Shown: piece after piece, positions 1 through 58,287 of the stretch
How positions within the stretch are numbered: the first letter of the stretch is position 1
Layout: every line of letters begins with the position of its first letter
From: Minisyncoccota bacterium
GTDB taxonomy: Bacteria; Patescibacteriota; Minisyncoccia; Phycocordibacterales; DATDWN01
Reading direction: 5' to 3'
Assembly: GCA_041674105.1 (NCBI GenBank)
Contig: JBAYWK010000004.1
Location: 1 to 58,287, forward strand
Length of the DNA: 58,287 nucleotides
The notes under the pieces: model-generated
Told to the model about the DNA's origin: nothing
Databases searched by the model: none
The model's input: the letters and a program-made list of their open reading frames with translations, nothing else
Translations under genes and position numbers: made by a program

Positions 1-56
1 AAGTAGTTTCTGCTGATATGGATAGAAGAGTTTTAGATTATGCTTTAGTTGATTAA
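1..56 (+). CDS. 3' end of a gene entering from the left, possibly the C-terminal S1 domain of RNase R (partial)
   Basis: Frame from base 3 reads VVSADMDRRVLDYALVD* (TAA 54-56), resembling the last strand of RNase R S1 domains; its stop overlaps the stop of the convergent oxidoreductase. Only 17 codons are visible. Confidence 0.4.
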   Translation, partial: VVSADMDRRVLDYALVD

Positions 57-1813
57 GAGGTGTGCTTAGTATGAGGGTGATCTGGTGGGGCTAAATATTT
101 TACTATATCGTCTTTTGTAGTCCCAACTTTTTTACCAGGATTGAATATGTTTTTTGGATCAAAAATATTTTTTACATCTTCAAATATAGATAACATCTTC
201 TGACTATACATTTTATTTAGATAAGGAGTCCTAATTATTCCATCATTGTGCTCCGCTGTTATAGAACCCTTATATTCAGCAACTAAATCGTAAACTTTAT
301 CTGATAATTCCAATATAGTTGGAATTATTCTCTCATCATTCATATCAACCAAAGGAATTATATGAAAGTTTCCATTACCAGCGTGACCAGCGATTGTATA
401 GACCAAATATGGATAATCATCCAACAGATTATTTAATTTAGGTAAAAATTCTGGGAGACATTCTGGATTCACAACAATATCATCTATAAAAGGAGCTGTT
501 CTCATACCTTTCACATGTTTTCTAAGTAGAGCAAAACTGTCTCGACGCATTGCCCAATACTTGTCAGCTTCTGCGATAGATCTTGTTATTCTAGTCTTTA
601 GTTTAAAATGACTTACTTTGTTTTGAGCATCCAAACATTTTTGTTGAATATCTTTCTCATCATTTCCGGAGAATTCAATAAGTAAAATCAATTTCGGTAC
701 CCCACCCGAAATAACCATAAAAAATTCTGGTAAGAAAGACAGTCCAAATTTTATAGAACCCCAAAAACCTTTTTGTTTTACAAAATCACCAAAAAACTTC
801 ATAGCTAAGCCAAAAGTTTTATCATCATAAGATTCAATACTCTGAGGATTTAAAGCTTTTAATTCATAGACCAAGTTTCCTAAAATAGATAAATCATTTA
901 AAAAAACAACTAGAAGTTTTGAGGCTTTAGGAATTTCCACCAAATTAAAAGTGATCTTTGTCACTATACCAAGTGTACCCTGAGACCCAGCTATAAGCTT
1001 TGGTAAATCAAAAACTTCCTCTCCAAAAGAATCGTTCCAAACATTCCAAATAGTATAACCAGCAGAATTTTTAGAGACTTGTGGTTTACTAGAATTTATT
1101 TCATCTTTATTTTGGTCTATTAGGTCAAATATTTTTTTATAAAGAGATCCTTCAAAATTACTTTGAGACATTTTTGACTCCAGTTCTGACTTAGATATAG
1201 GTTTTAATGTGTATTCATTACCATCTTCAAAAATAAAAGAAAGCTCTGCTATATAGTCTTCTGTTTTTCCATATCTCAAAGTCAATTCTCCAGCTGAATT
1301 ATTCCCAACCATACCACCAACAGCGTTTATAGATTTTGAAGCCGTAAAAGAAGGTAAAAGTAATCCTTTTTCTCCAACTGCTTTTTCAAAATCCCTATAA
1401 AAACAACCCGGCTCTACAACAACTCGTCCAGAAACATTTACAGAAGCACTTCCCGGAAACATAGGTTTCATTTGTTTTATATCTGTATTCTCAACAGATA
1501 TAATTTTGTTCATATATTTTGTGGTATCTAAAATAATAGAAGTGTTTAGTGGTCCTCCTGCCATGCAAGTTCCAGCTGCTCTAACCGTCAAAGAAAGGTC
1601 TGGGTACTTAGATTTATTTAAAGATACCCATTTTACCAATTCCGAAATATCTTTTGAATGCTTAGGAAAAACAACTACCTCTGGTTTTATTTTAAACAAG
1701 CTTGCGTCTGTACTATATTTTTCTAAAATCTCTGGAGAGGATTCTACTTCCCCTTCACATATTTTTGATATTTCCTCAGTAATAAATTTAATTTGGTTTA
1801 ATTTTTCTTCCAT
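53..1813 (-). CDS. FAD-binding oxidoreductase (D-lactate dehydrogenase/glycolate oxidase-like, FAD-linked oxidase family)
   Basis: 586 aa; N-terminal FAD_binding_4-like region (RAAGTCMAGG, VVEPG, GGMVGNNSAG), GSQGTLGIVT, and C-terminal GHAGNGNFH / AEHNDG / DPKNIFNPGK motifs. Confidence 0.85.
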   Translation of the reverse strand: MEEKLNQIKFITEEISKICEGEVESSPEILEKYSTDASLFKIKPEVVVFPKHSKDISELVKWVSLNKSKYPDLSLTVRAAGTCMAGGPLNTSIILDTTKYMNKIISVENTDIKQMKPMFPGSASVNVSGRVVVEPGCFYRDFEKAVGEKGLLLPSFTASKSINAVGGMVGNNSAGELTLRYGKTEDYIAELSFIFEDGNEYTLKPISKSELESKMSQSNFEGSLYKKIFDLIDQNKDEINSSKPQVSKNSAGYTIWNVWNDSFGEEVFDLPKLIAGSQGTLGIVTKITFNLVEIPKASKLLVVFLNDLSILGNLVYELKALNPQSIESYDDKTFGLAMKFFGDFVKQKGFWGSIKFGLSFLPEFFMVISGGVPKLILLIEFSGNDEKDIQQKCLDAQNKVSHFKLKTRITRSIAEADKYWAMRRDSFALLRKHVKGMRTAPFIDDIVVNPECLPEFLPKLNNLLDDYPYLVYTIAGHAGNGNFHIIPLVDMNDERIIPTILELSDKVYDLVAEYKGSITAEHNDGIIRTPYLNKMYSQKMLSIFEDVKNIFDPKNIFNPGKKVGTTKDDIVKYLAPPDHPHTKHTS

Positions 1814-1892
1814 ATATAAATTATAGCAATTAAATAAAGCAATTAAAAAGAAAATTGATGTTTAATCAATTTTCTTAAATTTCTAATAAAAA

Positions 1893-2432
1893 TTATTTTG
1901 AAACCTTGCCTCGCCACGGAGTACCCAACATAGGAAGAAGAAATCTGTCCAAACCAAGAAATCCAGATATTTTCCAAGCTAGGATAACTCCTATACTCAA
2001 TACAAAAAGAATAGGATTTGAACTGACAGTTCCTGCTAAAAGATAATTTAGGTTCATAAGTAACCCAAAAAAGGCTGCGATACCAGTAAAAGCGCCCACA
2101 ATAAGCCCTACACCGACCAATATCTCACCATAAGTAATCATATGCGACCATAAGCTAGCGTTCGGTAAGACGACGTTCTGAAGAAATGCTCCGTACCAAC
2201 CAGAGACATCAGGATGGAGTCCTTCAGTCTTTGTCAAAGCCCCTTTTATAAAACCTGTTATAGCTCCACCTGCCTCTGGACCAATCCAAGCCGGATTTGT
2301 AGCTTTATCTATCCCAGCTTGCAACCATTGCCACCCAATATACAGACGCACAACGAGCCAAAACCACGCCATTTTTGTATTTGAAAACAAAAATTTAGAC
2401 AAGGGCGACTCTTCTACAATAATAGTTGCCAT
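1893..2432 (-). CDS. DoxX/DoxD-family membrane protein (thiosulfate:quinone oxidoreductase small-subunit-like)
   Basis: 179 aa; RLYIGWQWLQAGIDK, GEILVGVGLIVG, MNLNYLLAG and GLDRFL motifs with about 4 TM helices. Confidence 0.8.
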   Translation of the reverse strand: MATIIVEESPLSKFLFSNTKMAWFWLVVRLYIGWQWLQAGIDKATNPAWIGPEAGGAITGFIKGALTKTEGLHPDVSGWYGAFLQNVVLPNASLWSHMITYGEILVGVGLIVGAFTGIAAFFGLLMNLNYLLAGTVSSNPILFVLSIGVILAWKISGFLGLDRFLLPMLGTPWRGKVSK

Positions 2433-2548
2433 AATAAAAAATATTTAAATATTAATACTTACAATTATAACCCTTTGTGTCCACTATAGTAAATCTACTT
2501 AACCCCAATAAAAAGCAGAGTCTATTTCGCTACAGCGACGGCCTCGTC

Positions 2549-2584
2549 CCTGCTTCGCACAAAACTACGGAGGGCAAACAAAAT
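2549..2584. repeat. Short palindromic element (GCCCTCCGTAG...GCGAAGCAGGG on minus) between two diverged copies of the smc 3' end
   Basis: Flanked by 2522-2548 (encodes DEAVAVAK*) and 2585-2611 (encodes DEAIAVAK*, the true smc end). Confidence 0.55.
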
Positions 2585-4840
2585 CTACTTAGCTACAGCA
2601 ATGGCTTCGTCGAAAGCAACGGAAAGTAACTTCGATCCTCCACCACTCGCCATAGTTACGCCGTAAAGTATTCCTGCTCGAGACATTGTCTCTCTATTAT
2701 GAGTTATGACAATAAGCTGAGAAAATTTTGAAAGATTCTCTACCATATCTCCATATTTTCTAGAATTTGCTTCATCCAGTGCAGCGTCTGTTTCATCCAA
2801 AATTATAAACGGCGGAGGATTTACCTGAGAAATAGCAAAAAGTAGTGCAATAGAAGTCAAAGCTCTTTCCCCACCAGAGAGCATCATAAGACCCCTTATC
2901 TTCTTTTTTGGTAAAGACACATCTATGTCTATACCCTCTTCTCCTTCCTCCTCTTCTATATTCTCAAGTTCTTCTTCAAACTCTCCATCCAATATGGATC
3001 CGCCTCGAGCAGACTTCCGTTTTGGTGAAGAAATGACAAAAAGTTTTGCCTCTCCTCCACCAAACATAAGTGAGAAATATTCTTTAAATTGATTATTTAT
3101 TTTCTGAAGACCTTCCTCAAACTCTACGGCTAGGCGCTTGTCCAAATCTACAATCAACTCAGATATAGAATTTGCAGAGAGTTCTAAATCTTCAAGTTCT
3201 TTAGCTAAAAAGGCATCTCTTTGCGTAACTTCTTCATATTCTTTTAGAACTTCACCACCTCCTAAACCACCAGCGTCTTCTAATCTTATTTTTATTTTTT
3301 CTATAACTTTCCTCCTTTCCTCTTGAACAAATCTTTCCTCGTTGTAGTCAAATGATAAATTTTCATATTCAAGGACGCCTCTCCCGAGCATCATAGCCAA
3401 CTCAGTCAATTCTCTTTTAAAATCTTCTTTTATAACTCTTAAAGTTTCTTCTTCACTTCTTATTTTATTTAAATTAGATATTATCTCCTGTTCTTCGGCC
3501 ATTATTCTGAAAACAGCTTTCTCTGCATCACGATTTGAATCCTTTTCAGCGTTTATCTTTTCTTGAAGCTTAGTGTATTCCTTTGCCACATCCTCTTCTC
3601 TTTTTTCCATTTCTTCTGTTTTTTGAAAAGTTTCTTCTTTTAGTTTTTTTAAAGTATTTAAATCTTTCTCGGCTTCAGATAAAAGAGATGTATCCACCTT
3701 ATCTTTGTTGCTGTCTATAAAATTTGAAATGTGTTTTGAAATATCATCTAGAGCAGAAATAATATCTGACACAGTTTGCATCTGTTTAGCTGTATTTATT
3801 TTCTGCTCTATTTCTCTATTTAAAGACTCCAAAGAAACCAAGGCAACAGTCTTATGAATATAAGAATTGACTATCTCCTCTTGTTTTTTAATCATCCTTA
3901 CCAAAGAAGTTATCTCTCCATCCAATCTACCGGATTCTCTAAGTAAATCTTCTTTTTCTTTTCTGACATTATGAAGGTTATTTTCTAAAGATATAAGCTC
4001 GTCAGACATACTGTCTCTATGAGAAGCTTTCTCAAGGACGGATTTCGCTGACGAAAGTTCTGTTTCTAGTCTAGTCTTTTCTTTTTGAAGCGGAGATATT
4101 TTTAAGAACAAATCGTCTGTAACTTTTTTTATATAATAATCTTCTCTATTGCAATATTCCAAAGCTCTACCTTTAAGTTCCTCTTTCATTTGCAAGGTTT
4201 TCTCCACTTTTTCAACTTGTTTTTTCAAAAAACGAATATGAGGATTTATTTCTCTTCTTAGAGATTCTACTTGAGCAATATTTTCTTTTGTTTTCAAAAG
4301 TTTTTTCTCACTCTCTTGCTTTTTATACTGATACATCTTGAGGCCTAAAGCATCTTCAACCATTGATTTTCTTTCTTTAGCTGTGGCATTCAATATTCTG
4401 TCAGCTTCGCCTTGAGAAATAATATGATGTCTAGAAACCCCTATATGAGCAGAGATTAAAAGTTCTATAATATCTTTAAGTCTTACTTGAGAACCATTTA
4501 TAAGATACTCATTTATACCATCTCTATAAACAATTCTCTCTATAGTTACTGTTTCAAAATCCACCGGCAAAAATTTTGTACTATTATCAAAAACAACTTT
4601 TACACTGGCTCTATTTGCTCTAGGTAAATCTCCCGCTCCATTGAAAATAAGATCTTCACCTTTCTTACCTCTCATTGATTTTATAGACTGCTCTCCCAAA
4701 ACAAAACGAAAAGCTTCAGCTATATTAGACTTTCCGGAACCATTTGGACCAACAATGGCTGAAACATTTGATGAAAAAGTTAGCTCGCTTTTTTTTGCGA
4801 AACTTTTAAATCCAAAAAGTTCAATAGATTTTAGATACAT
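2585..4840 (-). CDS. smc: Short SMC-family chromosome segregation ATPase
   Basis: 751 aa; MYLKSIELFGFKSF start, Walker A GPNGSGKS, Q-loop ISQG, signature LSGGE, Walker B/D-loop LDETDAALD, long coiled coils. Confidence 0.9.
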   Translation of the reverse strand: MYLKSIELFGFKSFAKKSELTFSSNVSAIVGPNGSGKSNIAEAFRFVLGEQSIKSMRGKKGEDLIFNGAGDLPRANRASVKVVFDNSTKFLPVDFETVTIERIVYRDGINEYLINGSQVRLKDIIELLISAHIGVSRHHIISQGEADRILNATAKERKSMVEDALGLKMYQYKKQESEKKLLKTKENIAQVESLRREINPHIRFLKKQVEKVEKTLQMKEELKGRALEYCNREDYYIKKVTDDLFLKISPLQKEKTRLETELSSAKSVLEKASHRDSMSDELISLENNLHNVRKEKEDLLRESGRLDGEITSLVRMIKKQEEIVNSYIHKTVALVSLESLNREIEQKINTAKQMQTVSDIISALDDISKHISNFIDSNKDKVDTSLLSEAEKDLNTLKKLKEETFQKTEEMEKREEDVAKEYTKLQEKINAEKDSNRDAEKAVFRIMAEEQEIISNLNKIRSEEETLRVIKEDFKRELTELAMMLGRGVLEYENLSFDYNEERFVQEERRKVIEKIKIRLEDAGGLGGGEVLKEYEEVTQRDAFLAKELEDLELSANSISELIVDLDKRLAVEFEEGLQKINNQFKEYFSLMFGGGEAKLFVISSPKRKSARGGSILDGEFEEELENIEEEEGEEGIDIDVSLPKKKIRGLMMLSGGERALTSIALLFAISQVNPPPFIILDETDAALDEANSRKYGDMVENLSKFSQLIVITHNRETMSRAGILYGVTMASGGGSKLLSVAFDEAIAVAK

Positions 4841-4914
4841 AGTTACCTATAGAGTATATAAAAATATTTTACTTTTGTCTTGGAAAACCAATACCAAACC
4901 AAAAACCCGTTGAC

Positions 4915-5005
4915 CTATGTTTCGAGAAGAGCCTTGCACAGCGCGACGGTGCTAGCAGTTCGCTAGCCCAGTAGGGCCAAATAGATTGCTTTTTGAGAAA
5001 TATAG
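4915..5005 (+). repeat. Structured intergenic element, copy A (GCGCGACGG core, AGTA-capped hairpin)
   Basis: Outer arms 4915-4932 and 4988-5005 pair with several G-U pairs on +; core at 4941-4949; gccc-AGTA-gggc at 4966-4977. Confidence 0.65.
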
Positions 5006-5023
5006 AGAGAGTTTTAATTAAAT

Positions 5024-5719
5024 CTACTCCCAACCTTTATCTCTAAGTGCCTTCCGAGCTGCCTCTTGTTCTGCGTCTTGTTTGGAGTTTCCTTCGCCTG
5101 TAGCGACTAAGTCTTTGCCTATATAAACACCAATGGTAAATTTCTTCTCATGATCTGGTCCAGATTCTTTTATTGTCTTGTATGAAGGAGTAGTACTTTC
5201 AAACTCCTGAGCTTTTTCCTGAAATAGACTTTTTGAATCTATAAAACTTTTTGCAGAAATAATATCATGTATAAGAGGAGTAAATTCTTTTTCTACAAAT
5301 TCTTTTGTTCTTTCATATCCTTGATCTATATACAAAGCTCCAATAAAAGCTTCCAAAGTATTAGCTAAAATATATTGTCTTGCTCTACCATTATCCTTAC
5401 TTTCACCTTTTGAAAGTAGGAGGAAATCGTTCATACCGAGCCTTGTGGCAATATCAGCACAAGTAGTGGCGTTGACCAAAGATGATCTATAAGCAGTCAA
5501 TTCTCCTTCTTGTTTTTCAGGATATTCTCCATATAAAAAGTCTGTAATAACAAGCTCTAAAACAGCATCCCCCAAAAATTCCAATCTTTCATTATGGGCA
5601 GTACGAAGACCTCTGTTTTCATTTATATATGAACGATGAACAAAAGCCTGCATAAGTAGGTTTTTATCCTTGAAATTTATACCTATTTTATTTTGAAATT
5701 CTGAGACTTCTATACTCAT
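5024..5719 (-). CDS. rnc: Ribonuclease III
   Basis: HNERLEFLGDAVLEL signature plus C-terminal dsRBD (GEGNSKQDAEQEAA). Confidence 0.97.
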   Translation of the reverse strand: MSIEVSEFQNKIGINFKDKNLLMQAFVHRSYINENRGLRTAHNERLEFLGDAVLELVITDFLYGEYPEKQEGELTAYRSSLVNATTCADIATRLGMNDFLLLSKGESKDNGRARQYILANTLEAFIGALYIDQGYERTKEFVEKEFTPLIHDIISAKSFIDSKSLFQEKAQEFESTTPSYKTIKESGPDHEKKFTIGVYIGKDLVATGEGNSKQDAEQEAARKALRDKGWE

Positions 5720-5771
5720 AAGCGGTACTGTAACATAAAAAAAAATAACTGGAAACCTAGAGCTTTAAATA

Positions 5772-6665
5772 CTACTTTTTTAATAAAATATTTATAGCCT
5801 TAGTAACAATAGGTAAAATATCATTATAAAAATTCAAATCCAAAATATCGCCCATCTTAAACCATTTAGCATCATCAAGTCCTCCAGAGTTTTCAAGCTT
5901 TATATCTACAAAAGGAGCTTCAGCCAAATAATAAGATACATTTTTTTTGATTTTACCTTTTTCAGGATGATGAGTTAGATATTGGTTTGAGCCAAGTTTT
6001 TCTTTTACTTTTATAGGAAGTGAGATTTCATCCTGAATGACCTTAACAACTTCTGCATCAGGATCTGTACCTTCTATATGACCTTTGGATAAAGTCCAAT
6101 GACCAAAAACATCATGTACCAAAGCCAAATACATATCTTCACCTTCTTTAGCATAAACAACCGCTCCAACCAGATATTCTATCGGAATATTCGCAGAAAT
6201 ACCGTCCTTACTTTTTTTATCCTTAGATGTCTCGTCTTTACCTGGCTCTCCAAGCTCTTTGTATACCGCACCCAGAACACCATTTACAAATTTGCTAGAA
6301 GTTTCTCCTCCAAAAGTCTTTGAAAGTTCTATAGCCTCATTTATGGCCACTTTAGGTGGCACCTGTGACCTATCCGCAAACAAAAGCTCAAAAAGTCCAA
6401 TACGTAAAATGTTCCTATCAATAACACTTATTTTATCAATAGGCCAATCTGGTGCCGCTTTCTCTATAATAAGGTCTAAATCCCTTTGTCTTTCAATAAC
6501 ACCTTTTATTAAATTCTCCATAAAAGTAGTCTCTCCTATTCCTGGAGCAAACTCTTCTGCATTGCGGATAAATATCTCCATAATCTCTGTGGAGTTTTTT
6601 TTACTAAAATCCCATTCAAATAAGGACTGTAGAACTATTGATCTGGAAAGGTGCCTTTGTGCCAT
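5772..6665 (-). CDS. nusB: Transcription antitermination factor NusB fused to a C-terminal NUDIX-like domain
   Basis: N-terminal NusB motifs (IDRNILRIGLFEL, AINEAIELSKTFGG, FVNGVLG); C-terminal GAVVY...WTLSKGHIE NUDIX-type fold. Confidence 0.9.
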   Translation of the reverse strand: MAQRHLSRSIVLQSLFEWDFSKKNSTEIMEIFIRNAEEFAPGIGETTFMENLIKGVIERQRDLDLIIEKAAPDWPIDKISVIDRNILRIGLFELLFADRSQVPPKVAINEAIELSKTFGGETSSKFVNGVLGAVYKELGEPGKDETSKDKKSKDGISANIPIEYLVGAVVYAKEGEDMYLALVHDVFGHWTLSKGHIEGTDPDAEVVKVIQDEISLPIKVKEKLGSNQYLTHHPEKGKIKKNVSYYLAEAPFVDIKLENSGGLDDAKWFKMGDILDLNFYNDILPIVTKAINILLKK

Positions 6666-6733
6666 CTCGTTTGTATACTAAACATTATACAAATAATTTT
6701 CAAAAAAAACAAAAATAATTAAAACAAAAGGGT

Positions 6734-6961
6734 CTATCGACCCTCTTTATTTTTAGATGAAGCTTTTTTAGCTTTCTTTGCTATCTTCGCAGAGAAATCT
6801 ATAACAGTCCTTCCTCTATATTGACCAGTAACAGTAGAAGCTCTATGACGCAAATGAGGAACCTTAGTGTTTGCATCTACAGTTATAGCAGGAGACTCCA
6901 ATCTGTGGTGAGATCGGGTATTTCCCCTCTGTGATCTTGTATGTCTCATTCTTACAACCAT
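6734..6961 (-). CDS. rpmF: 50S ribosomal protein L32 (cysteine-free form)
   Basis: MVVRMRHTRSQRGNTRSHH...HLRHRA...GQYRGR; located next to nusB and rnc. Confidence 0.9.
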   Translation of the reverse strand: MVVRMRHTRSQRGNTRSHHRLESPAITVDANTKVPHLRHRASTVTGQYRGRTVIDFSAKIAKKAKKASSKNKEGR

Positions 6962-7078
6962 AATGAAAGAAAGTGTACCTTATATCATAAAAAAAATCAA
7001 CTCGTAATAATTTTTTACAGAACGATACATTTCTGTTGCACCCTAGCAAACTAGACCATCTATATAAATTTTTAAAAT

Positions 7079-7196
7079 AAATCCCCATCGAGTGTATGTG
7101 TTTTCTGAAACATTGCGAGCGCGACGGCGTGAACACGAGGAATTTTTCAGTAGAAAAATATCCGTTTTCAGAAAACATATACCGAGATGGGGATTT
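7079..7196 (+). repeat. Structured intergenic element, copy B
   Basis: Arms aaatccccatc...gatggggattt and ttttctgaaa/tttcagaaaa; core GAGCGCGACGGCGTGA at 7117-7132; atttttc-AGTA-gaaaaat at 7142-7159. Confidence 0.7.
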
Positions 7197-7248
7197 AAAA
7201 AATCAAGGACAATCTAAAATTATGTTGCTGAGAAAGAGATTTTAAATA

Positions 7249-7839
7249 CTATCTTCTACAAAAACTTTTTCTATGTATAGGAGATAAACCATACTTTAAA
7301 ATAACTCCTTTGTGTATTTTTGTCCCATACCCTTTATGTCTATCAAACATATACTCGGGATACTTCTTATGCATCTTTACCATAAAATTATCTCTAGAAA
7401 CTTTGGCTATTATACTAGCCCAAGAAATAATTTTTTCTTTTTCATCTCCTTTTATTATTGTCTTCTGAAACAAAAATTCTGAAGGAGCATAAAGTCCTCC
7501 ATCTAATAAAATTTTACACTTCTTTGGATTAAGTTTCTGTTTTTTGAGACCCTCATTTATGGCTTTTTTTATAGAAAAAGAAATACCCTTTTTATCTATG
7601 ATTTTATTAGAGACACTAACTACTGAAAAATCTATACTCAACTTTTTCAAATATTTAAAGTATTTTTGACGAAGTATTGGAGTTAGTTTTTTACTATCTT
7701 TACCAAAAGCTGGTAAATTTTTGTCTTTTTTAAATCTTAAATAATCCTTAAAATCACAGGAAGCGACACAAACAGTCACAGGTCCAGCCAAAGGACCTCT
7801 ACCGACTTCGTCTATACCAACTATCTTTGAAAGAGTCAT
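7249..7839 (-). CDS. rnhB: Ribonuclease HII
   Basis: GIDEVGRGPLAGPV, DSKKL, DG, KGD...ASIIAKVSRD, HKGYGT and HRKSF motifs. Confidence 0.95.
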   Translation of the reverse strand: MTLSKIVGIDEVGRGPLAGPVTVCVASCDFKDYLRFKKDKNLPAFGKDSKKLTPILRQKYFKYLKKLSIDFSVVSVSNKIIDKKGISFSIKKAINEGLKKQKLNPKKCKILLDGGLYAPSEFLFQKTIIKGDEKEKIISWASIIAKVSRDNFMVKMHKKYPEYMFDRHKGYGTKIHKGVILKYGLSPIHRKSFCRR

Positions 7840-7847
7840 AAAAAAAA

Positions 7848-8381
7848 CTAATGATCAGTATAGAGATAAGGACTGTAGTTTTGAGGATTAGGCTTACCAT
7901 GACTACCTCGACACCACGGCCTATCATTACCAACCGTATTCTCAATCCAACCTTTAAGCTCACATCTATTTGGATTTGAATGATCCTCAAACTGTGCTAC
8001 AAGATCATATTCATTTGGATACGAAGCCGTGTTATTACCATAAGCATATGTATAACCACTGTCTTCATTCCATGGTCCAAGGCCTGTATTTTTTGGGTCT
8101 ACCGGCATCTTTTTCATATAAGGAGTGAGAGCAGTCTGCAGAGCTCCCCAATTTGTACTATAAACCCAGCCAGAAATGACAGGATATTTACCATTATCAT
8201 CATAATAAAGTTCAAGGGCAGTTCTTATTTGTCTCAAATCCTGCATCCTTTTAGCGTCACGAGCTTTTATTCTAGCAGTGTTTAGTGAAGCCAAAACGAT
8301 AGACGACAAAAGACTAATTATAGAAATAACCACGAGTAACTCTATCAAAGTAAAACCTTTTTTATCTCTAGATAAAAACAT
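7848..8381 (-). CDS. Type IV pilin / GspG-like prepilin
   Basis: Class III signal KKG/FTLIELLVVISII followed by ARDAKRMQDLRQIRTALELYY...DP. Confidence 0.92.
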   Translation of the reverse strand: MFLSRDKKGFTLIELLVVISIISLLSSIVLASLNTARIKARDAKRMQDLRQIRTALELYYDDNGKYPVISGWVYSTNWGALQTALTPYMKKMPVDPKNTGLGPWNEDSGYTYAYGNNTASYPNEYDLVAQFEDHSNPNRCELKGWIENTVGNDRPWCRGSHGKPNPQNYSPYLYTDH

Positions 8382-8523
8382 TTTTTCTAAGTATTAATTT
8401 AGACTTGTCTATATATAATAACGACTACTTAGAAATATAACAATTTTTTTATCCCCAAAATCATATTTCTCGGTAAAAAAATATGACATTTAGACCACTA
8501 AATTTTGTGTTATAATCTACAGA

Positions 8524-25941: not shown

Positions 25942-26814
25942 TTAAGAAAGACCATTAAATAATTTTAATTTTTTCAAAACAACATCTTCTACATCTTTTA
26001 CTCCTTGTTTCAAAAACTTATAAGGCGCAACCTCATCTGGATTTTCTTGTAAAAACTTCGTAATTCCTTTTTTATAAGCAATCCTTATTTCTGTGTTTAT
26101 ATGAATGATAGAGATTCCAGCTTCTATAGCCTGTTTAAAATCATCAATCGAACTTCCAGAACCTCCGTGCAAAACCAAAGGAACTTTTGCTTCATCCTTT
26201 ATTCTTTTTATCAAATCAATATGCAATCTTGGATTTATCCCTGTCCTAAACATCCCGTGGACATTTCCAACAGAAGGAGCAAGCAGATCTATACCTGTCT
26301 TTTCTACAAACTCTTTTGCTTTATCAGGATGAGTCATAGATTCTTCATCAGAAGAAACTCCTTCTGGTATTTCATCTAATATTTTTGAAGAAGTCCCAAT
26401 ATAACCTATCTCAGCTTCCACTAAAACCTCTGGTCTAGTAGACCTAACATAATCAACGCACTTTTTTGTTTCCACAACATTATCCTCAAAAGAAAGTTTA
26501 GCCCCATCAAAAATAACAGAATCAAAACCAGCATCTACCACCTCTTTTACTCTCTCAAAAGAATAAGTATGGTCGGCGTTTAAAAATATGGGATAATTGT
26601 ATTCCTCTCTAATACTTTTCACCATAGAAGCAACCTGCTTCACTCCAATAAAATCTCTTTCACCTTCTGAAACCCCTATTATAATAGGAACTCCAAGTGT
26701 TTGAGCTGGACGAAAAACTCCCCAAATACCATCGCTATTTGAAATATTAAAATGTCCGATAGCTACTTTTTTATCTTGTGCCTCATAAATATATTCTTTC
26801 AGTGTTTTTATCAT
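25942..26814 (-). CDS. fba: Class II fructose-bisphosphate aldolase
   Basis: NADHT, FDSVIFDG, EAEIG, GNVHG, VLHGGSG, NTEIR. Confidence 0.9.
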   Translation of the reverse strand: MIKTLKEYIYEAQDKKVAIGHFNISNSDGIWGVFRPAQTLGVPIIIGVSEGERDFIGVKQVASMVKSIREEYNYPIFLNADHTYSFERVKEVVDAGFDSVIFDGAKLSFEDNVVETKKCVDYVRSTRPEVLVEAEIGYIGTSSKILDEIPEGVSSDEESMTHPDKAKEFVEKTGIDLLAPSVGNVHGMFRTGINPRLHIDLIKRIKDEAKVPLVLHGGSGSSIDDFKQAIEAGISIIHINTEIRIAYKKGITKFLQENPDEVAPYKFLKQGVKDVEDVVLKKLKLFNGLS

Positions 26815-26850
26815 AAATACATTATATAACAGTAAAAATCTTTTACAAAA

Positions 26851-26881
26851 GATAAGCCGTTGTCTTCACAACGGCTTATTC
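26851..26881 (-). terminator. Intrinsic terminator of the orphan gene
   Basis: Perfect 11-bp inverted repeat ataagccgttg/caacggcttat overlapping the stop; followed by cttttgt on minus. Confidence 0.75.
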
Positions 26882-27336
26882 GCACTAAGGACTCTTCTAT
26901 TTGGAAACCATTCTCTATTTTCCCTAACGCTCTTATCGTAACCACGAACAGTCCACAGTCCACCTTTTTCCACCAAAACTAGCAAATGATTCTCTCCTGT
27001 CAGAGGACTTGTAGATATAAAAAGATTTGATACTCCAATGAGCGATGATCTTGTAGCCAAAAGATAAAAAATATTTGCCAGCGATATAGGACCAAGATCC
27101 CCTGTTTCGCTAATAAGATCTTCTTCGTGAAATGCTTTCGTGCATTCACAAGAAAATATTAAATGTGATGGCTCTGGGAAAATAACGGCTCCCTCAAACC
27201 ATTTACAAAAATTTTGACCATGTTTGCCAAACCTTATTGGAGAAGTACTTTCAGAAAAAATGTACTTATCCACATGAAAGGGTTCAAACCTTTCTGGAGT
27301 ACTCGTTCTATAAATAGAACTTACCAAATGTGACAT
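26866..27336 (-). CDS. Orphan hypothetical protein inserted in the sugar-metabolism cluster
   Basis: 156 aa ORF with strong SD (GGAGGTG, 27341-27347), TTGACA-18-TAGTAT promoter-like site and its own terminator. Confidence 0.7.
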   Translation of the reverse strand: MSHLVSSIYRTSTPERFEPFHVDKYIFSESTSPIRFGKHGQNFCKWFEGAVIFPEPSHLIFSCECTKAFHEEDLISETGDLGPISLANIFYLLATRSSLIGVSNLFISTSPLTGENHLLVLVEKGGLWTVRGYDKSVRENREWFPNRRVLSANKPL

Positions 27337-27418
27337 ATCTCACCTCCAACTCAATACTAGACCTCCAGTACAAGAGTTGTCAACGCCTTAATTTTGAAAA
27401 TGATGTTATAATTTCTTT

Positions 27419-28402
27419 ATGACAAAAATAGATATTTTAGCCATTGGCGACATTACAACAGATGCATTTATTAGAATAAAAGACGCAACTGTAGACTGTG
27501 ATGTGGATTCAGAAAATTGTAAGCTTTGCGTAAAATTTGGAGATAAGATTCCTTATGAATCTGTAGATATAGTCAGAGCTGTTGGAAATAGTGCCAACGC
27601 ATCTGTGTCTTCTGCTAGGCTAGGACTCCACTCTGCTCTACTTGCATACATAGGAAACGATCAGAATGGAAAAGAATGTAAAGAAGAACTAGAAAGAAAC
27701 AATGTAGATACAACATATGTCCGAGTTGAGGATGGTAAAAATACAAATTACCATTATGTTCTTTGGTACGATGTAGAGAGAACAATACTGGTAAAACATG
27801 AGACTTTTTCATACAAACTTGGTGACATAGACCATCCAAAATGGATCTACCTAAGCTCTCTTGGAGAAAACTCACTACCTTACCATTTAGAAATCGCTGA
27901 CTTTATAGAAAAAAATCCTGAAACAAAACTAGCTTTTCAACCTGGGACTTTCCAAATTCGCCTTGGAGCGAAAACTTTAGAAAAAATATATAAAAATACA
28001 GAAGTTTTTTTCTGTAACGTAGAAGAAGCTCAAAAAATACTAGATGAAAAGACAAGAGACCTTCCTACCCTTCTTTCAAAAATGAAAGAGTTGGGGCCAA
28101 AAATTATTTGTATTACAGATGGTATAAATGGTGCCTACACTTTTGATGGAAATAAGAGACTTTTTGTTCCTATATACCCTCAAGAAGCCTTTGAAAGGAC
28201 AGGTGCTGGAGATGCTTTCGCCTCCACATTTATTTCAGCTCTAGCAAAAGGTAAAACATTGGAGGAAGCTATGCTTTGGGGACCAATAAACTCTATGTCT
28301 GTAGTCAAAGACGTTGGCGCCCAAAGAGGCCTTTTGTCCGAAGAAAAACTACTGGACTACTTATCCAAAGCTCCAGAAGATTACAAAGTAAAAGAGATAT
28401 AA
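27419..28402 (+). CDS. PfkB-family carbohydrate kinase
   Basis: GNSANASV..ARLG N-terminal signature; ERTGAGDAFAS C-terminal signature. Confidence 0.92.
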   Translation: MTKIDILAIGDITTDAFIRIKDATVDCDVDSENCKLCVKFGDKIPYESVDIVRAVGNSANASVSSARLGLHSALLAYIGNDQNGKECKEELERNNVDTTYVRVEDGKNTNYHYVLWYDVERTILVKHETFSYKLGDIDHPKWIYLSSLGENSLPYHLEIADFIEKNPETKLAFQPGTFQIRLGAKTLEKIYKNTEVFFCNVEEAQKILDEKTRDLPTLLSKMKELGPKIICITDGINGAYTFDGNKRLFVPIYPQEAFERTGAGDAFASTFISALAKGKTLEEAMLWGPINSMSVVKDVGAQRGLLSEEKLLDYLSKAPEDYKVKEI

Positions 28403-28483
28403 AAAAAGAGACCACTTTTGGTAGTCTCTCATGTTCACCTCCTTTCTTGGTGGACCTTTTTACAGCTGATCAGGCTGACTGGG

Positions 28484-29170
28484 CTATTCGCCGAGCAATT
28501 GTTCGCGGAGATGGCGTACGAGATCAGTGCCTACTTGATTGTTAACCGCAAACGGCAACATGAGGTTCAACAGACAGAGCGAGACTTCACGAGCATCTTC
28601 CTCCGGCAACTTTTTGATGCCGGCGACAACTGTCTCGAGATCGCCCTGTTGTGTGCCGTTGAGTAAAGCAGACTCGGCAGAACCCTTCAGTTGGACGCCG
28701 ACTTGAGCCAGAACTTCTTTCAGCTCATTAACAGACTTCCGACCAAAGTTCTTGGTCCGAAGCAGGTCCATTTCGCTGACTCCGGACAACTGACTCACGT
28801 GAGTGAGGCCGGCATTCCGCAAACAGATGAGTGTTCTGACGGAAAGACCTAGATCTTCGAGAGTGAGGCCGCTAACCCCATTCTTTCTCTTTTCTGTAAT
28901 CTTTTGTTGACCTTCCCACTGCTCGAGCCGCGAGATAGCGACCTTGAGTTCCTGATGCCTGCGAGATTGGATGTGGTCATCCACCTCCGGAACAGGATCT
29001 CCGCCGACTGCCGTCAGATCGATACCGAACATCTGTTGGACGGCATGAGTCTGTCTTGTGGGCGACGGCGCGTCCTTCCTGCCGGTAAACCAGAGTTGCT
29101 GCGGCACGGTTTGGAAATACTTCTCAAACCGCACTTTCAAGTCTGCGAACTGTGCTTCGTTGATTCTCAT
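28484..29170 (-). CDS. High-GC orphan protein containing an RNA polymerase alpha C-terminal domain (start moved to ATG 29170)
   Basis: LEDLGLSVRTLICLRNAGL...EMDLLRTKNFGRKSVNELKEVL matches the alpha-CTD fold; no alpha-NTD; GGGAG SD precedes ATG 29170. Confidence 0.8.
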   Translation of the reverse strand: MRINEAQFADLKVRFEKYFQTVPQQLWFTGRKDAPSPTRQTHAVQQMFGIDLTAVGGDPVPEVDDHIQSRRHQELKVAISRLEQWEGQQKITEKRKNGVSGLTLEDLGLSVRTLICLRNAGLTHVSQLSGVSEMDLLRTKNFGRKSVNELKEVLAQVGVQLKGSAESALLNGTQQGDLETVVAGIKKLPEEDAREVSLCLLNLMLPFAVNNQVGTDLVRHLREQLLGE

Positions 29171-29292
29171 ATTAATCTCCCAATGAACTGAAATTTTGGA
29201 ATTACTCCCACCAAGATATTCAAACCTTGAAAACCTCAGTGGGAGCCCAAAAATAGCCATATTTATGGCCAAATTCTTAGTTTTCTATATAT

Positions 29293-29321
29293 ATTATACA
29301 CCTAAATGTATAAAAAGTCAA
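29293..29321 (-). promoter_or_regulatory. Sigma70-type promoter for the alpha-CTD orphan
   Basis: TTGACT-N17-TATAAT on minus. Confidence 0.75.
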
Positions 29322-29327
29322 TAGATT

Positions 29328-30320
29328 TTATTTCCTCTCGACTACCCTCTTTACTGCCTCCAATATATGAGACTCGCCCATTTCGTAGTGTTCCAGAAGT
29401 TCTTCGGGTTTTCCACTTTGTCCAAACTGGTTTTTAACTCCAATAAATTCAATAGGCGTTGGTTGTGTTTTTGCCAAAAATTCTGAAACTGCTCCGCCTA
29501 ATCCCCCAGTTATTTGATGTTCTTCTACTGTAACCAAGGCTCCTGCTTCTTTTGCAAGTTCCAAAACTGCTTTTTCATCAAGAGGTTTTATTGTTGAAAT
29601 ATTTAAAACTTTTACATTTATTTTTTCTTTGGAAAGTTTTTCGGCAACTTTCAAAGCTTTATAAACCAAAGCACCTGTGGCTATTATTCCCACTTCAGCT
29701 TTTAGATCTTTTCCAAAAAGAATTTGCCCCTTTCCAACCTCAAATGGCGTTTCCTTTGTGGTTATGACCGGAGTTTTTTCTCTTGCCAAACGAAGATAAA
29801 CAGGTTTACCTAAATCTGCACAAGCTATTGTAGCTTTTCTAGCTTCTATGTGGTCACAAGGAGAAATGACAATCATATTTGGTATAACACGAGTAATAGC
29901 AATATCTTCTATAGCCTGATGCGTTCCTCCGTCTGGTCCGACAGAAACTCCGGCATGAGACCCAACAATAATAACAGCGCGGTCGTTGTAGCAAATAGTT
30001 GTTCGTATTTGTTCCCAATTTCTTCCAGGAGAAAACATTGCATAGCTAGAGATGAAAGGTATTTTGCCCATAGCAGACATTCCAGAAGCCACAGAAGCCA
30101 AGTTTTGTTCGGCTACACCCATTTCTACAAATCTTTCTGGAAATTTATTTTTGAAAAGATGCATCTGAGTTGACTCTGTAAGGTCTGCGCAAAGTCCGAC
30201 GACTTGTGAATTTTTCTCCCCCAACTCCAAAAGTCCCTGCCCAAAACCCTTTCGGATAGGAACTTGTTCTACATCTTTTTCAAATATCTTTGGATTTAAT
30301 TTTTGATTTGGATTTAGCAT
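29328..30320 (-). CDS. Transketolase, C-terminal subunit
   Basis: ADLTEST, EMGVAEQN, GPDGGTHQA, PVYLRLAR, TVEEH. Confidence 0.93.
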   Translation of the reverse strand: MLNPNQKLNPKIFEKDVEQVPIRKGFGQGLLELGEKNSQVVGLCADLTESTQMHLFKNKFPERFVEMGVAEQNLASVASGMSAMGKIPFISSYAMFSPGRNWEQIRTTICYNDRAVIIVGSHAGVSVGPDGGTHQAIEDIAITRVIPNMIVISPCDHIEARKATIACADLGKPVYLRLAREKTPVITTKETPFEVGKGQILFGKDLKAEVGIIATGALVYKALKVAEKLSKEKINVKVLNISTIKPLDEKAVLELAKEAGALVTVEEHQITGGLGGAVSEFLAKTQPTPIEFIGVKNQFGQSGKPEELLEHYEMGESHILEAVKRVVERK

Positions 30321-30324
30321 AGTT

Positions 30325-31224
30325 TTATTCGCTTTCTGAAGTTATTTGTCCACCAAGCGTGCGCAATTCACGCAAAGCTATCTCTGCCTGCTCATCTTTT
30401 GGTGGCTCGCCTGCAATCTCTGTTCCCGGAGGATTCCCGTGCCATTTGTAATCTCTCTCCATATAAGAAACTCCTTTACCAGGAATAGTTCTAGCAATAA
30501 TTACACTCGGACCATCAAAAACAGCTTGAGCTCTACCAATAGCAGCAACTATTTCAGCAAAATTATGACCATCTATTTCTTCGGTATGCCAACCAAAACT
30601 TTCAAACTTATGAGAAACGGATTCAAGTGGCATTATGTCTTCTGTATATCCGTCTATTTGAATATTATTTCTATCCACTATAACAATGAGATTCCCTAGT
30701 TTCTCTTTATTAGCAAGCATCATAGCTTCCCAATTCTGCCCTTCATTTAATTCACCGTCACCCATAAGACAATAAAAAAATCTATCAGAAGAAGGACCTC
30801 TATCCATTCTGTCTGCTATAGTCATTCCTACGGCTTGAGAAAGTCCAGAGCCAAGTGGCCCAGATGAATTTTCTAAAGCAGGTAAAAACTCTCTATGTGG
30901 ATGTCCTTGTAGGCGAGAGCCGAATTTTCTCAGAGTTAAAAGTTCTTCCACTGGAAAATAACCAGAGTGTGCCATTGTAGCGTAGAGTACAGGAGCTATA
31001 TGACCATTTGAAAGTATTAGTCTATCTCTCTCCTCCCAATTAGGGTCCTGTGGTTTATGACGAAGTATATAAAAATAGAGAGTAGCAAAAATATCTGCCA
31101 TGCCCAAAGGACCAGCAGAATGACCAGATCCGGCAGAGACAAGCATTTCTATAATAGAAACTCTAATATCATTTGCCTTCTTTTCTAAAAATTTTATTTT
31201 TTCGTCTGTGAGATTAGTAACCAT
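30325..31224 (-). CDS. Transketolase, N-terminal (TPP-binding) subunit
   Basis: GSGHSAG, RDRLILSNGH, LQGHP, GDGELNEG..N TPP motif, GKGVSYME..WHG. Confidence 0.93.
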   Translation of the reverse strand: MVTNLTDEKIKFLEKKANDIRVSIIEMLVSAGSGHSAGPLGMADIFATLYFYILRHKPQDPNWEERDRLILSNGHIAPVLYATMAHSGYFPVEELLTLRKFGSRLQGHPHREFLPALENSSGPLGSGLSQAVGMTIADRMDRGPSSDRFFYCLMGDGELNEGQNWEAMMLANKEKLGNLIVIVDRNNIQIDGYTEDIMPLESVSHKFESFGWHTEEIDGHNFAEIVAAIGRAQAVFDGPSVIIARTIPGKGVSYMERDYKWHGNPPGTEIAGEPPKDEQAEIALRELRTLGGQITSESE

Positions 31225-31894
31225 TGATAGATTTTAAATGATTAAACACATCACCCGGACTTTCTGAATGTAAAATAGCGGAACCTGAAATAAGTTTTGT
31301 CGCTCCAGCTAAAACAAGTTCTTCTGCAGTATCTTCGTTTACACCAATATCAATTCCAATTATACGCTCTGGATAAAGATTGTGCAATTCTTTTATCATC
31401 TCTATCGCTCTTTCCTCTAGCTCTACTCCGTGTTTTCCTAAACTATCTGAACCCATACACTGGATGAAATCTATTTCTCCAATATAAAGTTCCAAAAGTT
31501 TTATGTCTGTCTTTGGTTTTATAGCCAAACCCAAAGCTACTTCATATGTTCTGCATTGTTCAATTATTTTTTCCATATCTGTAACAGCTTCTATATGAAC
31601 AATGACCGCAGAAATACCTGTATGAATCCAATTTTCTAAAACCTCTTCTGGATTTTCTACCATCAAATGAAGTTCTATAGAAATTTTTTCCCATCTAGGC
31701 CAACCTGTATTTTCCGATTTTAATTCTTCAAAGAAGTCAGAATCTTTTCCATTGTATGGCCAAGTAGAAACTCCTGTAAATTTTCCGTCCGAAATATCTA
31801 CCTGCACAACCTTTGCAAAACTAGAAACTAGGTCAATTTCTTCTTCCAGTTGTTTTTTTGAATATGGGATTATAGCTGGTATTACTTCTGTCAT
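31214..31894 (-). CDS. rpe: Ribulose-phosphate 3-epimerase
   Basis: VQVDISDGKF, ELHLMV, VHIE, IDIGVN, LISGSAI; operonic with tkt and rpiB. Confidence 0.85.
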   Translation of the reverse strand: MTEVIPAIIPYSKKQLEEEIDLVSSFAKVVQVDISDGKFTGVSTWPYNGKDSDFFEELKSENTGWPRWEKISIELHLMVENPEEVLENWIHTGISAVIVHIEAVTDMEKIIEQCRTYEVALGLAIKPKTDIKLLELYIGEIDFIQCMGSDSLGKHGVELEERAIEMIKELHNLYPERIIGIDIGVNEDTAEELVLAGATKLISGSAILHSESPGDVFNHLKSINGY

Positions 31895-57102: not shown

Positions 57103-57199
57103 AAAAAGCGCAGGCGACACACAAAATGTGTATTACCTGCGCTGTGGACCAAAAGGTCCTAGTTTTTGGCGTTTTTTGTCGAACGCCTGCGGTGGAAAA
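57103..57199. repeat. 97-bp direct repeat, copy 1 (PEP-CTERM basic tail, stop and terminator)
   Basis: Matches 57914-58010 except for one T/C mismatch; contains the agcgcagg...cctgcgct hairpin with a T-tract on minus. Confidence 0.9.
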
Positions 57200-57815
57200 T
57201 CCCTGCCACAAGAAGGCCAAGACCGGTCAAAAGCATCGTTGCCGGTTCGGGAACAGCCTCGATACGAATGTTGTCGAGTACTGCACCAGCATATCCGGAA
57301 TCCGAATACACGTTGGCAAATCGGAGGTGTTCCGATGTCGGTGCACCAAAATTAAAGGCGACATTCTCTGTTGGGTAAGGGTTATTTGCTCCCACCCTAT
57401 CAAAACTGCCGATAAATAATGCTCCCAACCATACCTCAACAGTGGCCGCCCTACTAAGGTCGCTGTTTGGGAAGTACCACCCAATGAGATCGAAACTAAG
57501 CATATAATTGCCCGCCTCGAAATCAATGGGGTTAACCGTCTCAATAACACCCCCGCCGTTGTTGTTCCCACCGTAAGTGTCAATACAGACACCGCTGGTA
57601 GGAGCAACGCAAAGCGTAGTGTAGGTGTCACTCGGTGTGACGACATCCACACTACCACTCAAGACTTGAAATTGTGTGCCCACAAGGACACCTGAGGTTT
57701 GAGATTGTATGTTAACTCCATTCTCGAAGTCCTCGAAGAAGATTGTTGCTGCAAATGCCGACCATGATGTCAGCACAAAAATCACAATAACCAGTAGACA
57801 CTTTGTCATTGTCAC
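57159..57815 (-). CDS. PEP-CTERM sorting-domain surface protein
   Basis: Signal peptide (..SAFA), beta-rich domain, VPEPATMLLTGLGLLVAGIFHRRR; AAGGAG SD and TTGCTT-N17-TATAAA promoter (57854-57882). Confidence 0.9.
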   Translation of the reverse strand: MTMTKCLLVIVIFVLTSWSAFAATIFFEDFENGVNIQSQTSGVLVGTQFQVLSGSVDVVTPSDTYTTLCVAPTSGVCIDTYGGNNNGGGVIETVNPIDFEAGNYMLSFDLIGWYFPNSDLSRAATVEVWLGALFIGSFDRVGANNPYPTENVAFNFGAPTSEHLRFANVYSDSGYAGAVLDNIRIEAVPEPATMLLTGLGLLVAGIFHRRRSTKNAKN

Positions 57816-57913: not shown

Positions 57914-58010
57914 AAAAAGCGCAGGCGACACACAAAATGTGTACTACCTGCGCTGTGGACCAAAAGGTCCTAGTTTTTGGCGTTTTTTGTCGAACGCCTG
58001 CGGTGGAAAA
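57914..58010. repeat. 97-bp direct repeat, copy 2
   Basis: Offset of 811 bp from copy 1, one mismatch. Confidence 0.9.
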
Positions 58011-58287
58011 ATCCCGCCATAAGGAGTCCGACACCCATTAACCCAAAGGTCGCCGGTTCGGGAACGGATTCAACAGAACCCTCCCAAACGGCTCCAAATG
58101 AGTAGCCTGACCGTTGGTACGTCCAGAGAGCAAGTTTGTTATTCCCTTGAGCCAAGTGGCCTGTAAGGGAAATGGTTTGAAACTCCGCCTGTTCGCAGGC
58201 GATTGGCCCTGCGGCACAGGTTGCATCCTGTGTCCAGTTGGCCGCCTTTAGTAAGTATCCGCCCGGGTGGAGCGAGTTTATGATGTA
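57970..58287 (-). CDS. Second PEP-CTERM protein (5'-truncated by the window edge)
   Basis: Frame is open from the window end: YIINSLHPGGYLLKAANW...SVPEPATFGLMGVGLLMAGFFHRRRSTKNAKN*. Confidence 0.88.
   Translation of the reverse strand, partial: YIINSLHPGGYLLKAANWTQDATCAAGPIACEQAEFQTISLTGHLAQGNNKLALWTYQRSGYSFGAVWEGSVESVPEPATFGLMGVGLLMAGFFHRRRSTKNAKN

Follow-up and report, generated by a model that had tools for sequence, protein, structure and literature searches.

A free-standing RNA polymerase alpha-CTD protein encoded in a GC-rich inserted unit of a Patescibacteria chromosome

The C-terminal domain of the RNA polymerase (RNAP) alpha subunit (alpha-CTD) is a module that contacts the minor groove of double-stranded DNA and other proteins. 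What is such a domain doing in a GC-rich gene of its own, between pfkB and the gene for the C-terminal half of a split transketolase (tktC), on the chromosome of a Minisyncoccota bacterium? The gene lies on the minus strand of a 58,287-nt stretch (GenBank assembly GCA_041674105.1, contig JBAYWK010000004.1; hereafter the window), and its coordinates and those of related features are collected in Table 1. The gene is real, intact and GC-rich, and it sits in an AT-rich chromosome. Its product is an alpha-CTD protein and not an RNA polymerase subunit. The Patescibacteria family to which this protein belongs is small and uncharacterised, and its domain architecture, built around a known domain, is new. 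We tentatively read the protein as a trans-acting regulator that would bind A/T-rich DNA and be built of three autonomous modules, a reading to which we assign a little less than an even chance.

The only Pfam match in the window protein was to RNA_pol_A_CTD (PF03118; 59.5 bits, E 2.6e-16, aa 102-155, gathering cut-off 23.8), and the alpha N-terminal domain (PF01193/PF01000) was absent. The rpoA equivalog models reached 45-64 bits against cut-offs of 228-523, in keeping with the description of the domain as free-standing in the initial annotation, which had been made from the sequence alone and had proposed both this profile search and a structure prediction as checks. No further alpha-CTD is encoded in the window. 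The domain matched 51 alpha chains in the PDB (best E 1e-11). In the AlphaFold (AF2) model the mean predicted local distance difference test score (pLDDT) was 72.7 for the whole protein and 77-85 in the alpha-CTD, and the top Foldseek matches were exclusively alpha-CTDs, with target-normalised TM scores of 0.73-0.93 and root-mean-square deviations of 0.7-1.4 Å, so that the model superposes on solved alpha-CTDs. Residues were mapped by alignment to E. coli alpha 249-329, a reference checked to be identical in sequence to PDB 1lb2_B and 10ma_G. The equivalents of R265, N294, G296, K298, S299 and E302 were retained and N268 was replaced by Ile; judged from the alignment, six of the seven residues of the '265 determinant' (R265, N268, N294, G296, K298, S299, E302) thus appear to be kept. 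The initial annotation had read the first five of these residues and the N268 replacement by eye in the same way, and every detail of its observations that was checked here, from the alpha-CTD and its residues to the promoter and the GC content, proved correct. N268 is retained by most members of the family, the Ile being peculiar to the lineage of the window and its close relative L013, and across the family no alpha-CTD positions are better conserved than the DNA-contact residues.

The gene had been called an orphan, a label that did not hold. A search of 5.8 billion proteins showed the alpha-CTD and the C-terminal module (C-module) to be common to about 28 protein clusters, every one of them from Patescibacteria-type contigs, and stand-alone versions of both flanking modules were found as well. 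Thirteen of the clusters are full-length and 63-78% identical to the window protein, and one is N-terminally truncated (P0015, 190 aa). Thirteen sister clusters (P0016-P0028) have the alpha-CTD and the last ~65 residues in common with the window protein and carry a Sigma70_r4 helix-turn-helix (HTH) at the N-terminus (Pfam 32.8-34.9 bits, cut-off 24.1). The window protein has no Sigma70_r4 at its N-terminus and lies outside the sister subfamily. No family member contains sigma regions 2 or 3, and therefore none is a sigma factor. Family members are mosaics: the best match of the window protein shifts along its sequence from one cluster to another (Table 1). Values of dN/dS were 0.09-0.16 against full-length homologues in three other loci (L004, L001 and L007), and the window protein is under purifying selection. 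A literature search on free-standing alpha-CTD proteins returned nothing specific.

The regions flanking the alpha-CTD were described as novel by the initial annotation, and neither had a match in Pfam, NCBIfam, PHROGs or PDB sequences. For the N-terminal module (N-module) this held for aa 1-98 searched against Pfam at E up to 10 and against the PDB. The N-module (AF2 pLDDT 53-75) is also encoded as stand-alone proteins of 98-113 aa that are 50-59% identical to it. A degenerate sigma region 4 was considered for this module and rejected: MAFFT aligned the two in register, but hhalign gave a probability of 0.09% against the sister N-termini and Pfam returned nothing. The C-module, which carries the family signature ..GIKKLPEEEAREVSLCLL..LRDRLLGE with invariant positions including K187, C199 and R222, was modelled alone by AF2 with a pLDDT of 86. 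It is acidic (pI 4.8), and therefore protein binding is likelier for it than nucleic-acid binding. It had no sequence match and no fold match in the PDB (Foldseek best E 1.6), and an HTH or sigma-4-like domain was discarded for it after Pfam, PDB sequence and fold searches all came back empty. Among 1.84 billion representatives, 15 matches to the C-module were found, including stand-alone proteins of 51-114 aa; one large match, P0122, is a low-complexity repeat and was judged spurious.

This architecture could also be that of a decoy or anti-activator, a free alpha-CTD that titrates activators, sigma region 4 or other partners while the N- and C-modules give stability or control. The fold matches almost exactly that of RNAP alpha-CTDs in contact with Spx, CAP and sigma-4, no alpha-NTD is present, and the two flanking modules resemble protein-interaction modules in being acidic or neutral, helical and also found alone. 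We consider this explanation unlikely, because at the position of E261, which contacts sigma-4 in E. coli, the window protein has Gly and P0021, the syntenic family member of L013, has Ser; because the DNA-contact residues, needless for a pure decoy, are the part of the domain best conserved; and because the sigma-4 fusion of the sister subfamily argues for action on DNA. The host's own rpoA also lies outside the window. For the protein as a regulator, the presence of a sigma region 4 HTH on the same alpha-CTD and C-module chassis points toward the architecture of a DNA-bound factor, as far as can be judged from sequence.

The minus-strand open reading frame (ORF), whose stop codon is at 28484-28486, had mechanically been called from a TTG at 29272. 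This call was set aside in favour of the ATG at 29170 (228 aa), because 14 of 14 full-length homologues begin with MRI(N/S)E or MK(I/M)N at the N-terminus, because a Shine-Dalgarno sequence (GGGAG) lies 8 nt upstream of this ATG, and because the extension to the TTG would run through a conserved RNA hairpin. It follows that the span 28484-29321 described by the initial annotation comprises the coding sequence (CDS), its leader and its promoter. The promoter is the consensus sequence noted there; it begins 7 nt past the tktC stop codon and is kept in L013 (1102-1130) with 3 substitutions. Between the promoter and the ATG, nhmmer found one copy of a two-hairpin leader element, and the leader RNA (fold -41.8 kcal/mol, z -4.4) had no match in Rfam. 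The order 3' of hairpin B is GGGAGTAATTCC...AGTTCATT, then the Shine-Dalgarno sequence, then the ATG. Beyond the stop codon, nucleotide homology with four other loci (L004, L176, L177 and L178) extends for ~50 nt, to 28430-28435. By eye, this 3' motif could also be recognised downstream of the terminal genes in L189 and L183, and the intrinsic terminator that follows it stands back to back with the end of pfkB. The segment 28406-29321 (-) is thus a self-contained expression unit of promoter, structured leader, ORF, 3' motif and terminator, and with all of these within ~0.9 kb it is a handy construct for study of the protein and its leader.

The promoter bears on a second alternative, in which the N- or C-module docks on the polymerase and the extra alpha-CTD reads UP-like A/T tracts, so redirecting polymerase to the promoters of GC-rich units. 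Strong consensus promoters with similar -10 contexts precede the units of the window, L013 and L183, further such promoters stand at the starts of the gene arrays described below, an A-rich tract lies immediately 5' of the window -35 hexamer (by eye), and the modular architecture would suit such an accessory. The N- and C-modules are unlike any known RNAP-binding domain, however, and nothing links them to polymerase; we hold this explanation to be rather improbable.

Could the gene instead be an artefact? Its composition is anomalous, as the initial annotation had pointed out. The GC content of the CDS was 52.7% (0.42-0.62 across its 50-nt windows) compared with 35.5% for the window, the 500-nt bin of highest GC in the whole window was 28501-29000 (0.522), and GC at third codon positions (GC3) was 0.59 compared with 0.21-0.27 in the adjoining genes and 0.248 +/- 0.047 in the other 49 long window ORFs. 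The surroundings are an ordinary AT-rich Patescibacteria chromosome segment, with genes for FBA, 2-hydroxyacid dehydrogenase, pfkB, tkt, rpe, rpiB, gap, RNR, ribosomal proteins and two tRNAs, and the window transketolase is 65-80% identical to transketolases of metagenome-assembled genomes (MAGs) labelled Paceibacteria, Minisyncoccia, Parcubacteria and similar.

Exact Logan contigs from three unrelated runs (one landfill and two groundwater metagenomes, from different studies) span the junctions. In run X1 a 3.7-kb contig starts in host DNA, crosses pfkB and reaches into the gene (26500-29012, depth 10.2), and a second one extends from the leader into transketolase (29184-31500, depth 9.56); in runs X2 and X3 short exact contigs cover 28343-28493, 29123-29279 and 29149-29299. 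The exact contigs of run X1 leave 29013-29183 uncovered between them, 171 nt that hold the 5' end of the CDS and the start of the leader and that were exchanged relative to L013; repeats in the community, or variation among its strains, could have caused the contig break. An assembly chimera, a contaminant or the remnant of a decaying pseudogene, which the anomalous composition and the contig break might suggest, is already refuted, and we give it next to no probability: the junctions are crossed at equal depth in data from three studies, a syntenic copy is found in L013 with flanks 82-85% identical, and the ORF is full-length and under purifying selection. The initial annotation had named a contaminant with discordant coverage as one of the findings that would overturn its proposal, and coverage was concordant.

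How did the gene come to lie there? Among the species representatives in GTDB that have the orthologous transketolase, 0 of 80 had a family member within 4 kb downstream, and in many of these Paceibacteria-type relatives the tktC-pfkB gap is merely ~10-60 bp. The slot is occupied in the window and its close relative L013 only, and the slot being empty in the 80 relatives indicates that a ~0.9-kb unit was inserted. The tktC of L013 is 95% identical to that of the window in amino acids and 85% in nucleotides, and the L013 slot gene, solo as in the window, is the sigma-4-type variant P0021, with an alpha-CTD 89% identical to that of the window protein. Between the two loci, the alignment reaches 81% from the alpha-CTD to past the stop codon and 91% across the promoter, and the leader and N-module (window 28871-29289) cannot be aligned. 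This interruption of the match indicates an ancestral insertion, after which the 5' part was replaced through recombination with another family copy. Neither a target-site duplication nor terminal inverted repeats were visible around the insertion, and transposon-like ends were accordingly ruled out. In L013, a 143-aa ORF with host-like GC and no Pfam match (1911-2462) lies between the alpha-CTD family gene and pfkB; it is not present in the window.

The initial annotation had proposed that the gene was acquired from, or acts on, a host of higher GC. The acquisition is borne out by the empty slot in the 80 relatives; the higher-GC host is not, as no donor could be identified. Among rpoA sequences, those closest to the alpha-CTD were ~50% identical to it across ~60 aa, and a scan of GTDB representatives, which was pattern-biased in its sampling and concerned a 60-aa domain, found only rpoA genes (Nitrospirota, Acidobacteriota and others) at 33-54% identity. 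A phage origin was rejected, PHROGs giving no match below E 0.09 and IMG/VR no viral relatives of the N-module, the C-module or the leader pattern. GC-rich codons are retained by the family in every AT-rich host seen, also after the window and L013 diverged. Continuing recombination between copies accounts for the GC-rich codons and the mosaicism no less well than a recent donor of higher GC does, and GC-biased gene conversion among the copies may possibly have contributed.

The same gene was found in quite different company elsewhere. In L001, L004/L005, L007, L009/L010, L178 and L189 the family gene stands last in a co-directional island of ~50% GC within a host of 35-40% GC, and the islands seen whole (L001, L004 and L010) span 4-5 kb. 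Similar GC-rich arrays also occur in L009, L185, L187 and L190-L194; further metagenome and GTDB loci were too short to show a link between array and alpha-CTD gene. An island starts with a strong sigma-70-like promoter in an AT-rich dip that follows a trmB-like gene, and it ends with the terminator of the alpha-CTD family gene. The stretch after the trmB-like gene and before the first array unit (L004 5040-5700, L010 5273-5946, L007 3609-4085) is conserved (75-79% nt), contains no called gene and holds the array start promoter. The other island ORFs are variable and have no Pfam match except for a weak receiver domain and a Ro60/TROVE gene in L007. This last gene (5219-6889) also encodes a von Willebrand factor A (vWA) domain and lies ~1.1 kb upstream of the alpha-CTD family gene of that array. 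A gene for a Xer-like tyrosine recombinase is often found near the islands, co-directional with them. In L177 an intein that includes a LAGLIDADG endonuclease domain (precomputed Pfam) splits such a gene (2382-4565), ~1.5 kb downstream of the family member with two genes between. The possibility that the islands are rRNA or rRNA introns was dismissed, as no rRNA was present and Rfam at gathering threshold found only tRNAs.

An element of ~90 nt precedes each island ORF and is also found at some spacers without an ORF. Its order is GC hairpin, CTYCYAYC, long variable stem, GRTGGGAG and YAATCCCnnAGTTCTTT. Across 21 distinct copies of hairpin B, 95.5% of cells were paired, compared with 73.7% in shuffles and 44-59% with partners slid, compensatory double changes were found at 13 of 17 pairs, and G-U pairs were frequent on the sense strand. 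The covariation and the sense-strand G-U pairs indicate that the element is an RNA structure; the apex of the hairpin is A/T-rich. The element is confined to loci with these units, being absent from 1.9 Mb of other loci scanned; its signature was found only in three GTDB Patescibacteria MAGs and ten metagenome stretches, and not in viral contigs. No Rfam family matched it, and a match of the L004 leader to RAGATH-22 (24.7 bits, cut-off 120; E 1.2) was put down to chance.

The window and L013 hold solo units that do not terminate an array, and no second GC-rich island and no further leader-element copy was found in the window. A stand-alone N-module gene is laid out in the same way in L183 (7850-8420, 102 aa, 54% GC, GC3 0.57, in a region of 35% GC), and one was also found in L184. 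The L183 unit has a TTGACA-17-TATAAT promoter with ...TTTGGGTGTATAAT similar to that of the window, and it has the leader hairpin and the 3' motif in common with the window as well, which indicates that the whole unit behaves as a movable cassette. Neighbours of the L183 unit include a 2003-aa protein with a faint HATPase_c_3 match, a DUF3800 gene and a serine recombinase gene.

Two arrays contain hammerhead type III ribozyme candidates (L010 and L174; Table 1), each covering the full model with an intact core (CUGAUGA...GAAAC) and scoring below the Rfam gathering score of 48.5. In L010 the candidate is immediately followed by the AATGTTCTT motif, which elsewhere comes after two-hairpin elements, as if hammerhead and two-hairpin RNA modules were interchangeable. 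The L174 array contains a stand-alone C-module gene and begins immediately after the 3' end of the tmRNA gene. Its small unannotated ORFs (1-8500) include a ThiF-like gene and the 72-aa C-module protein, and ahead of several of them the intergenic space contains a repeated motif of another kind (..AAGAGGTG-hairpin-CCTCTCGGCGA..). Rfam at E up to 5 found no ribozyme at the window locus (28380-29340), and a core-motif regular expression found no hammerhead in the whole window, so for the window the ribozyme link is a lead, not a result. The gene associations of hammerhead and twister ribozymes in bacteria are unexplained, and a role in processing polycistronic transcripts has been suggested (PMC6765202).

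The close association with covarying sense-strand hairpins, and the hammerhead candidates in two arrays, raise the question of whether the protein acts on RNA, binding or chaperoning structured leader RNAs or ribozyme-processed transcripts with its helix-hairpin-helix on the nucleic-acid backbone. No RNA-binding precedent for an alpha-CTD was found in this analysis, and with the hammerhead scores under the gathering score such a role appears quite doubtful.

If the protein is instead a trans-acting regulator, its alpha-CTD would contact the minor groove of A/T-rich DNA through the R265, N294, G296, K298 and S299 equivalents, the adjoining basic helix (aa 71-100) might assist that contact, and the C-module, possibly together with the N-module, could mediate self-association or partner binding. 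It may then control, in whichever direction, how its own unit is transcribed and, where a genome carries GC-rich cassette arrays that end in its gene, the transcription of these arrays as well, with the A/T-rich cores of the repeated leader elements as candidate target sites. Of the genes in the arrays, only the alpha-CTD family gene is constant, and the rest vary. Several observations weigh against this proposal. N268, a DNA-contact residue in E. coli, is replaced; the N-module is near-neutral and has no DNA-binding signature, so that the protein may possess just one weak, non-specific DNA-binding domain; and since the window has no array and a single leader copy, a role as array regulator is limited here to autoregulation. 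Moreover, the covariation and G-U pairs of hairpin B point to sense-strand RNA structure and not to a protein operator, and the locus was present in none of the RNA runs searched.

A broader and bolder proposal, which we put forward as speculation and judge unlikely as a whole, is that the window gene is a solo copy of an undescribed kind of GC-rich Patescibacteria unit. Such units would gather in arrays, reshuffle their modules and occasionally land alone, as in the window, L013 and L183; the alpha-CTD protein would be the dedicated DNA-binding regulator of the arrays; and the leader would be a new RNA-processing element, possibly self-cleaving and interchangeable with the L010 hammerhead.

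Table 1. Features of the window and of related loci, with the best-matching clusters for successive segments of the window protein
Feature	Location	Strand	Evidence or remark
pfkB	27419-28402	+	
Intrinsic terminator	28406..28430	-	10-bp stem and T-run
3' UTR motif (..CCTGATCAGCTGTAAAAAGGTCCACC..GGAGGTGA..)	28431..28483	-	conserved
CDS of N-module/alpha-CTD/C-module protein	28484-29170	-	228 aa + stop
C-module (aa 165-228)	28487..28678	-	acidic three-helix bundle, family signature; AF2
alpha-CTD (aa 102-161)	28688..28867	-	helix-hairpin-helix fold; Pfam, PDB sequence matches, Foldseek
N-module (aa 1-98)	28877..29170	-	two helices and a long basic helix; family not known
5' leader with two-hairpin element	29171..29285	-	nhmmer E 2e-21
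Leader long hairpin B (CTCCCAC...GTGGGAG)	29205-29245	-	
Leader hairpin A	29254-29271	-	
Sigma-70-type promoter TTGACT-17-TATAAT	29293..29321	-	11/12 matches
tktC (transketolase C-terminal half)	29328-30320	-	transketolase split
Mosaic segment	aa 1-36		best match P0003, 97%
Mosaic segment	aa 37-70		best match P0002, P0003, 91%
Mosaic segment	aa 71-100		best match P0004, P0011, 90%
Mosaic segment, alpha-CTD	aa 101-161		best match P0021, 89%
Mosaic segment, C-module	aa 162-228		best match P0017, 79%
GC-rich array	L001 6250-10750		
GC-rich array	L004 5000-9500		
GC-rich array	L007 4250-8772		
GC-rich array	L010 5250-10750		
Hammerhead_3 candidate	L010 7870-7923	+	38.2 bits, E 2e-5; same as L009 ~2491-2544
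Hammerhead_3 candidate	L174 2611-2665	+	34.5 bits, E 4e-6

At one end of the window, two tandem paralogous ORFs with a C-terminal PEP-CTERM motif were noted (57159-57815 and 57973-58287, both on the minus strand). The complete one, 57159-57815, has a Pfam score of 26.5 bits and a GC3 of 0.49. The same terminator follows each of them, and apart from these two and the alpha-CTD gene the window contains no genes enriched in GC.

Very few transcription factors can be recognised in Patescibacteria (the candidate phyla radiation). If the regulator reading is true, the promoter-reading parts of polymerase, the alpha-CTD and in the sister proteins sigma region 4, have been reused as free regulators, which bears on how reduced cells build regulation. 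The context poses a question that is perhaps larger, that of GC-rich arrays of uncharacterised small genes behind covarying RNA elements, with hammerhead candidates among them; why self-cleaving ribozymes are found beside particular sets of genes has long lacked an explanation (PMC6765202). The protein itself is of moderate interest, the cassette and leader system of more.

Among known proteins, the window protein shares with the alpha-CTD of RpoA its domain, by sequence and by fold, and the six determinant residues. It differs in the replacements at N268 and E261, in the embedding of the domain between unrelated modules, in being encoded by an inserted GC-rich unit, and in having no alpha-NTD, without which it is unable to assemble into core polymerase as alpha does. 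The pairing of alpha-CTD and sigma-70 region 4 on UP-element/-35 DNA (PDB 3N97) is echoed in P0016-P0028, which fuse both in one chain, and the L013 orthologue is of that type, whereas the window protein lacks sigma-4 by the hhalign comparison above. Other alpha-CTDs outside RpoA are found in PRK07758, a 95-aa hypothetical protein, and in P0029, a triple alpha-CTD protein. Both are without N- and C-modules, and PRK07758 matches the window protein weakly (E 0.011, 16 bits against a cut-off of 115).

At the level of gene organisation, hammerhead and twister neighbourhoods (PMC6765202) likewise consist of small, mostly unannotated co-directional ORFs split by structured RNAs, as in the candidate arrays L010 and L174; the window differs in having no detectable ribozyme, and the array candidates are sub-threshold. 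Integron cassette arrays are similar in that short ORFs each have a hairpin of conserved structure and variable sequence, and in that single units here occur at unrelated loci (window, L183). No integrase was seen by inspection near the gene in the window, where no dedicated attC or IntI model was run, and the arrays have no IntI-type integrase divergent from them, the tyrosine recombinases nearby being co-directional and Xer-like. Unlike integron cassettes, the units described here have their element 5' of each ORF, form G-U pairs on the sense strand, as an RNA does, and bring their own promoter.

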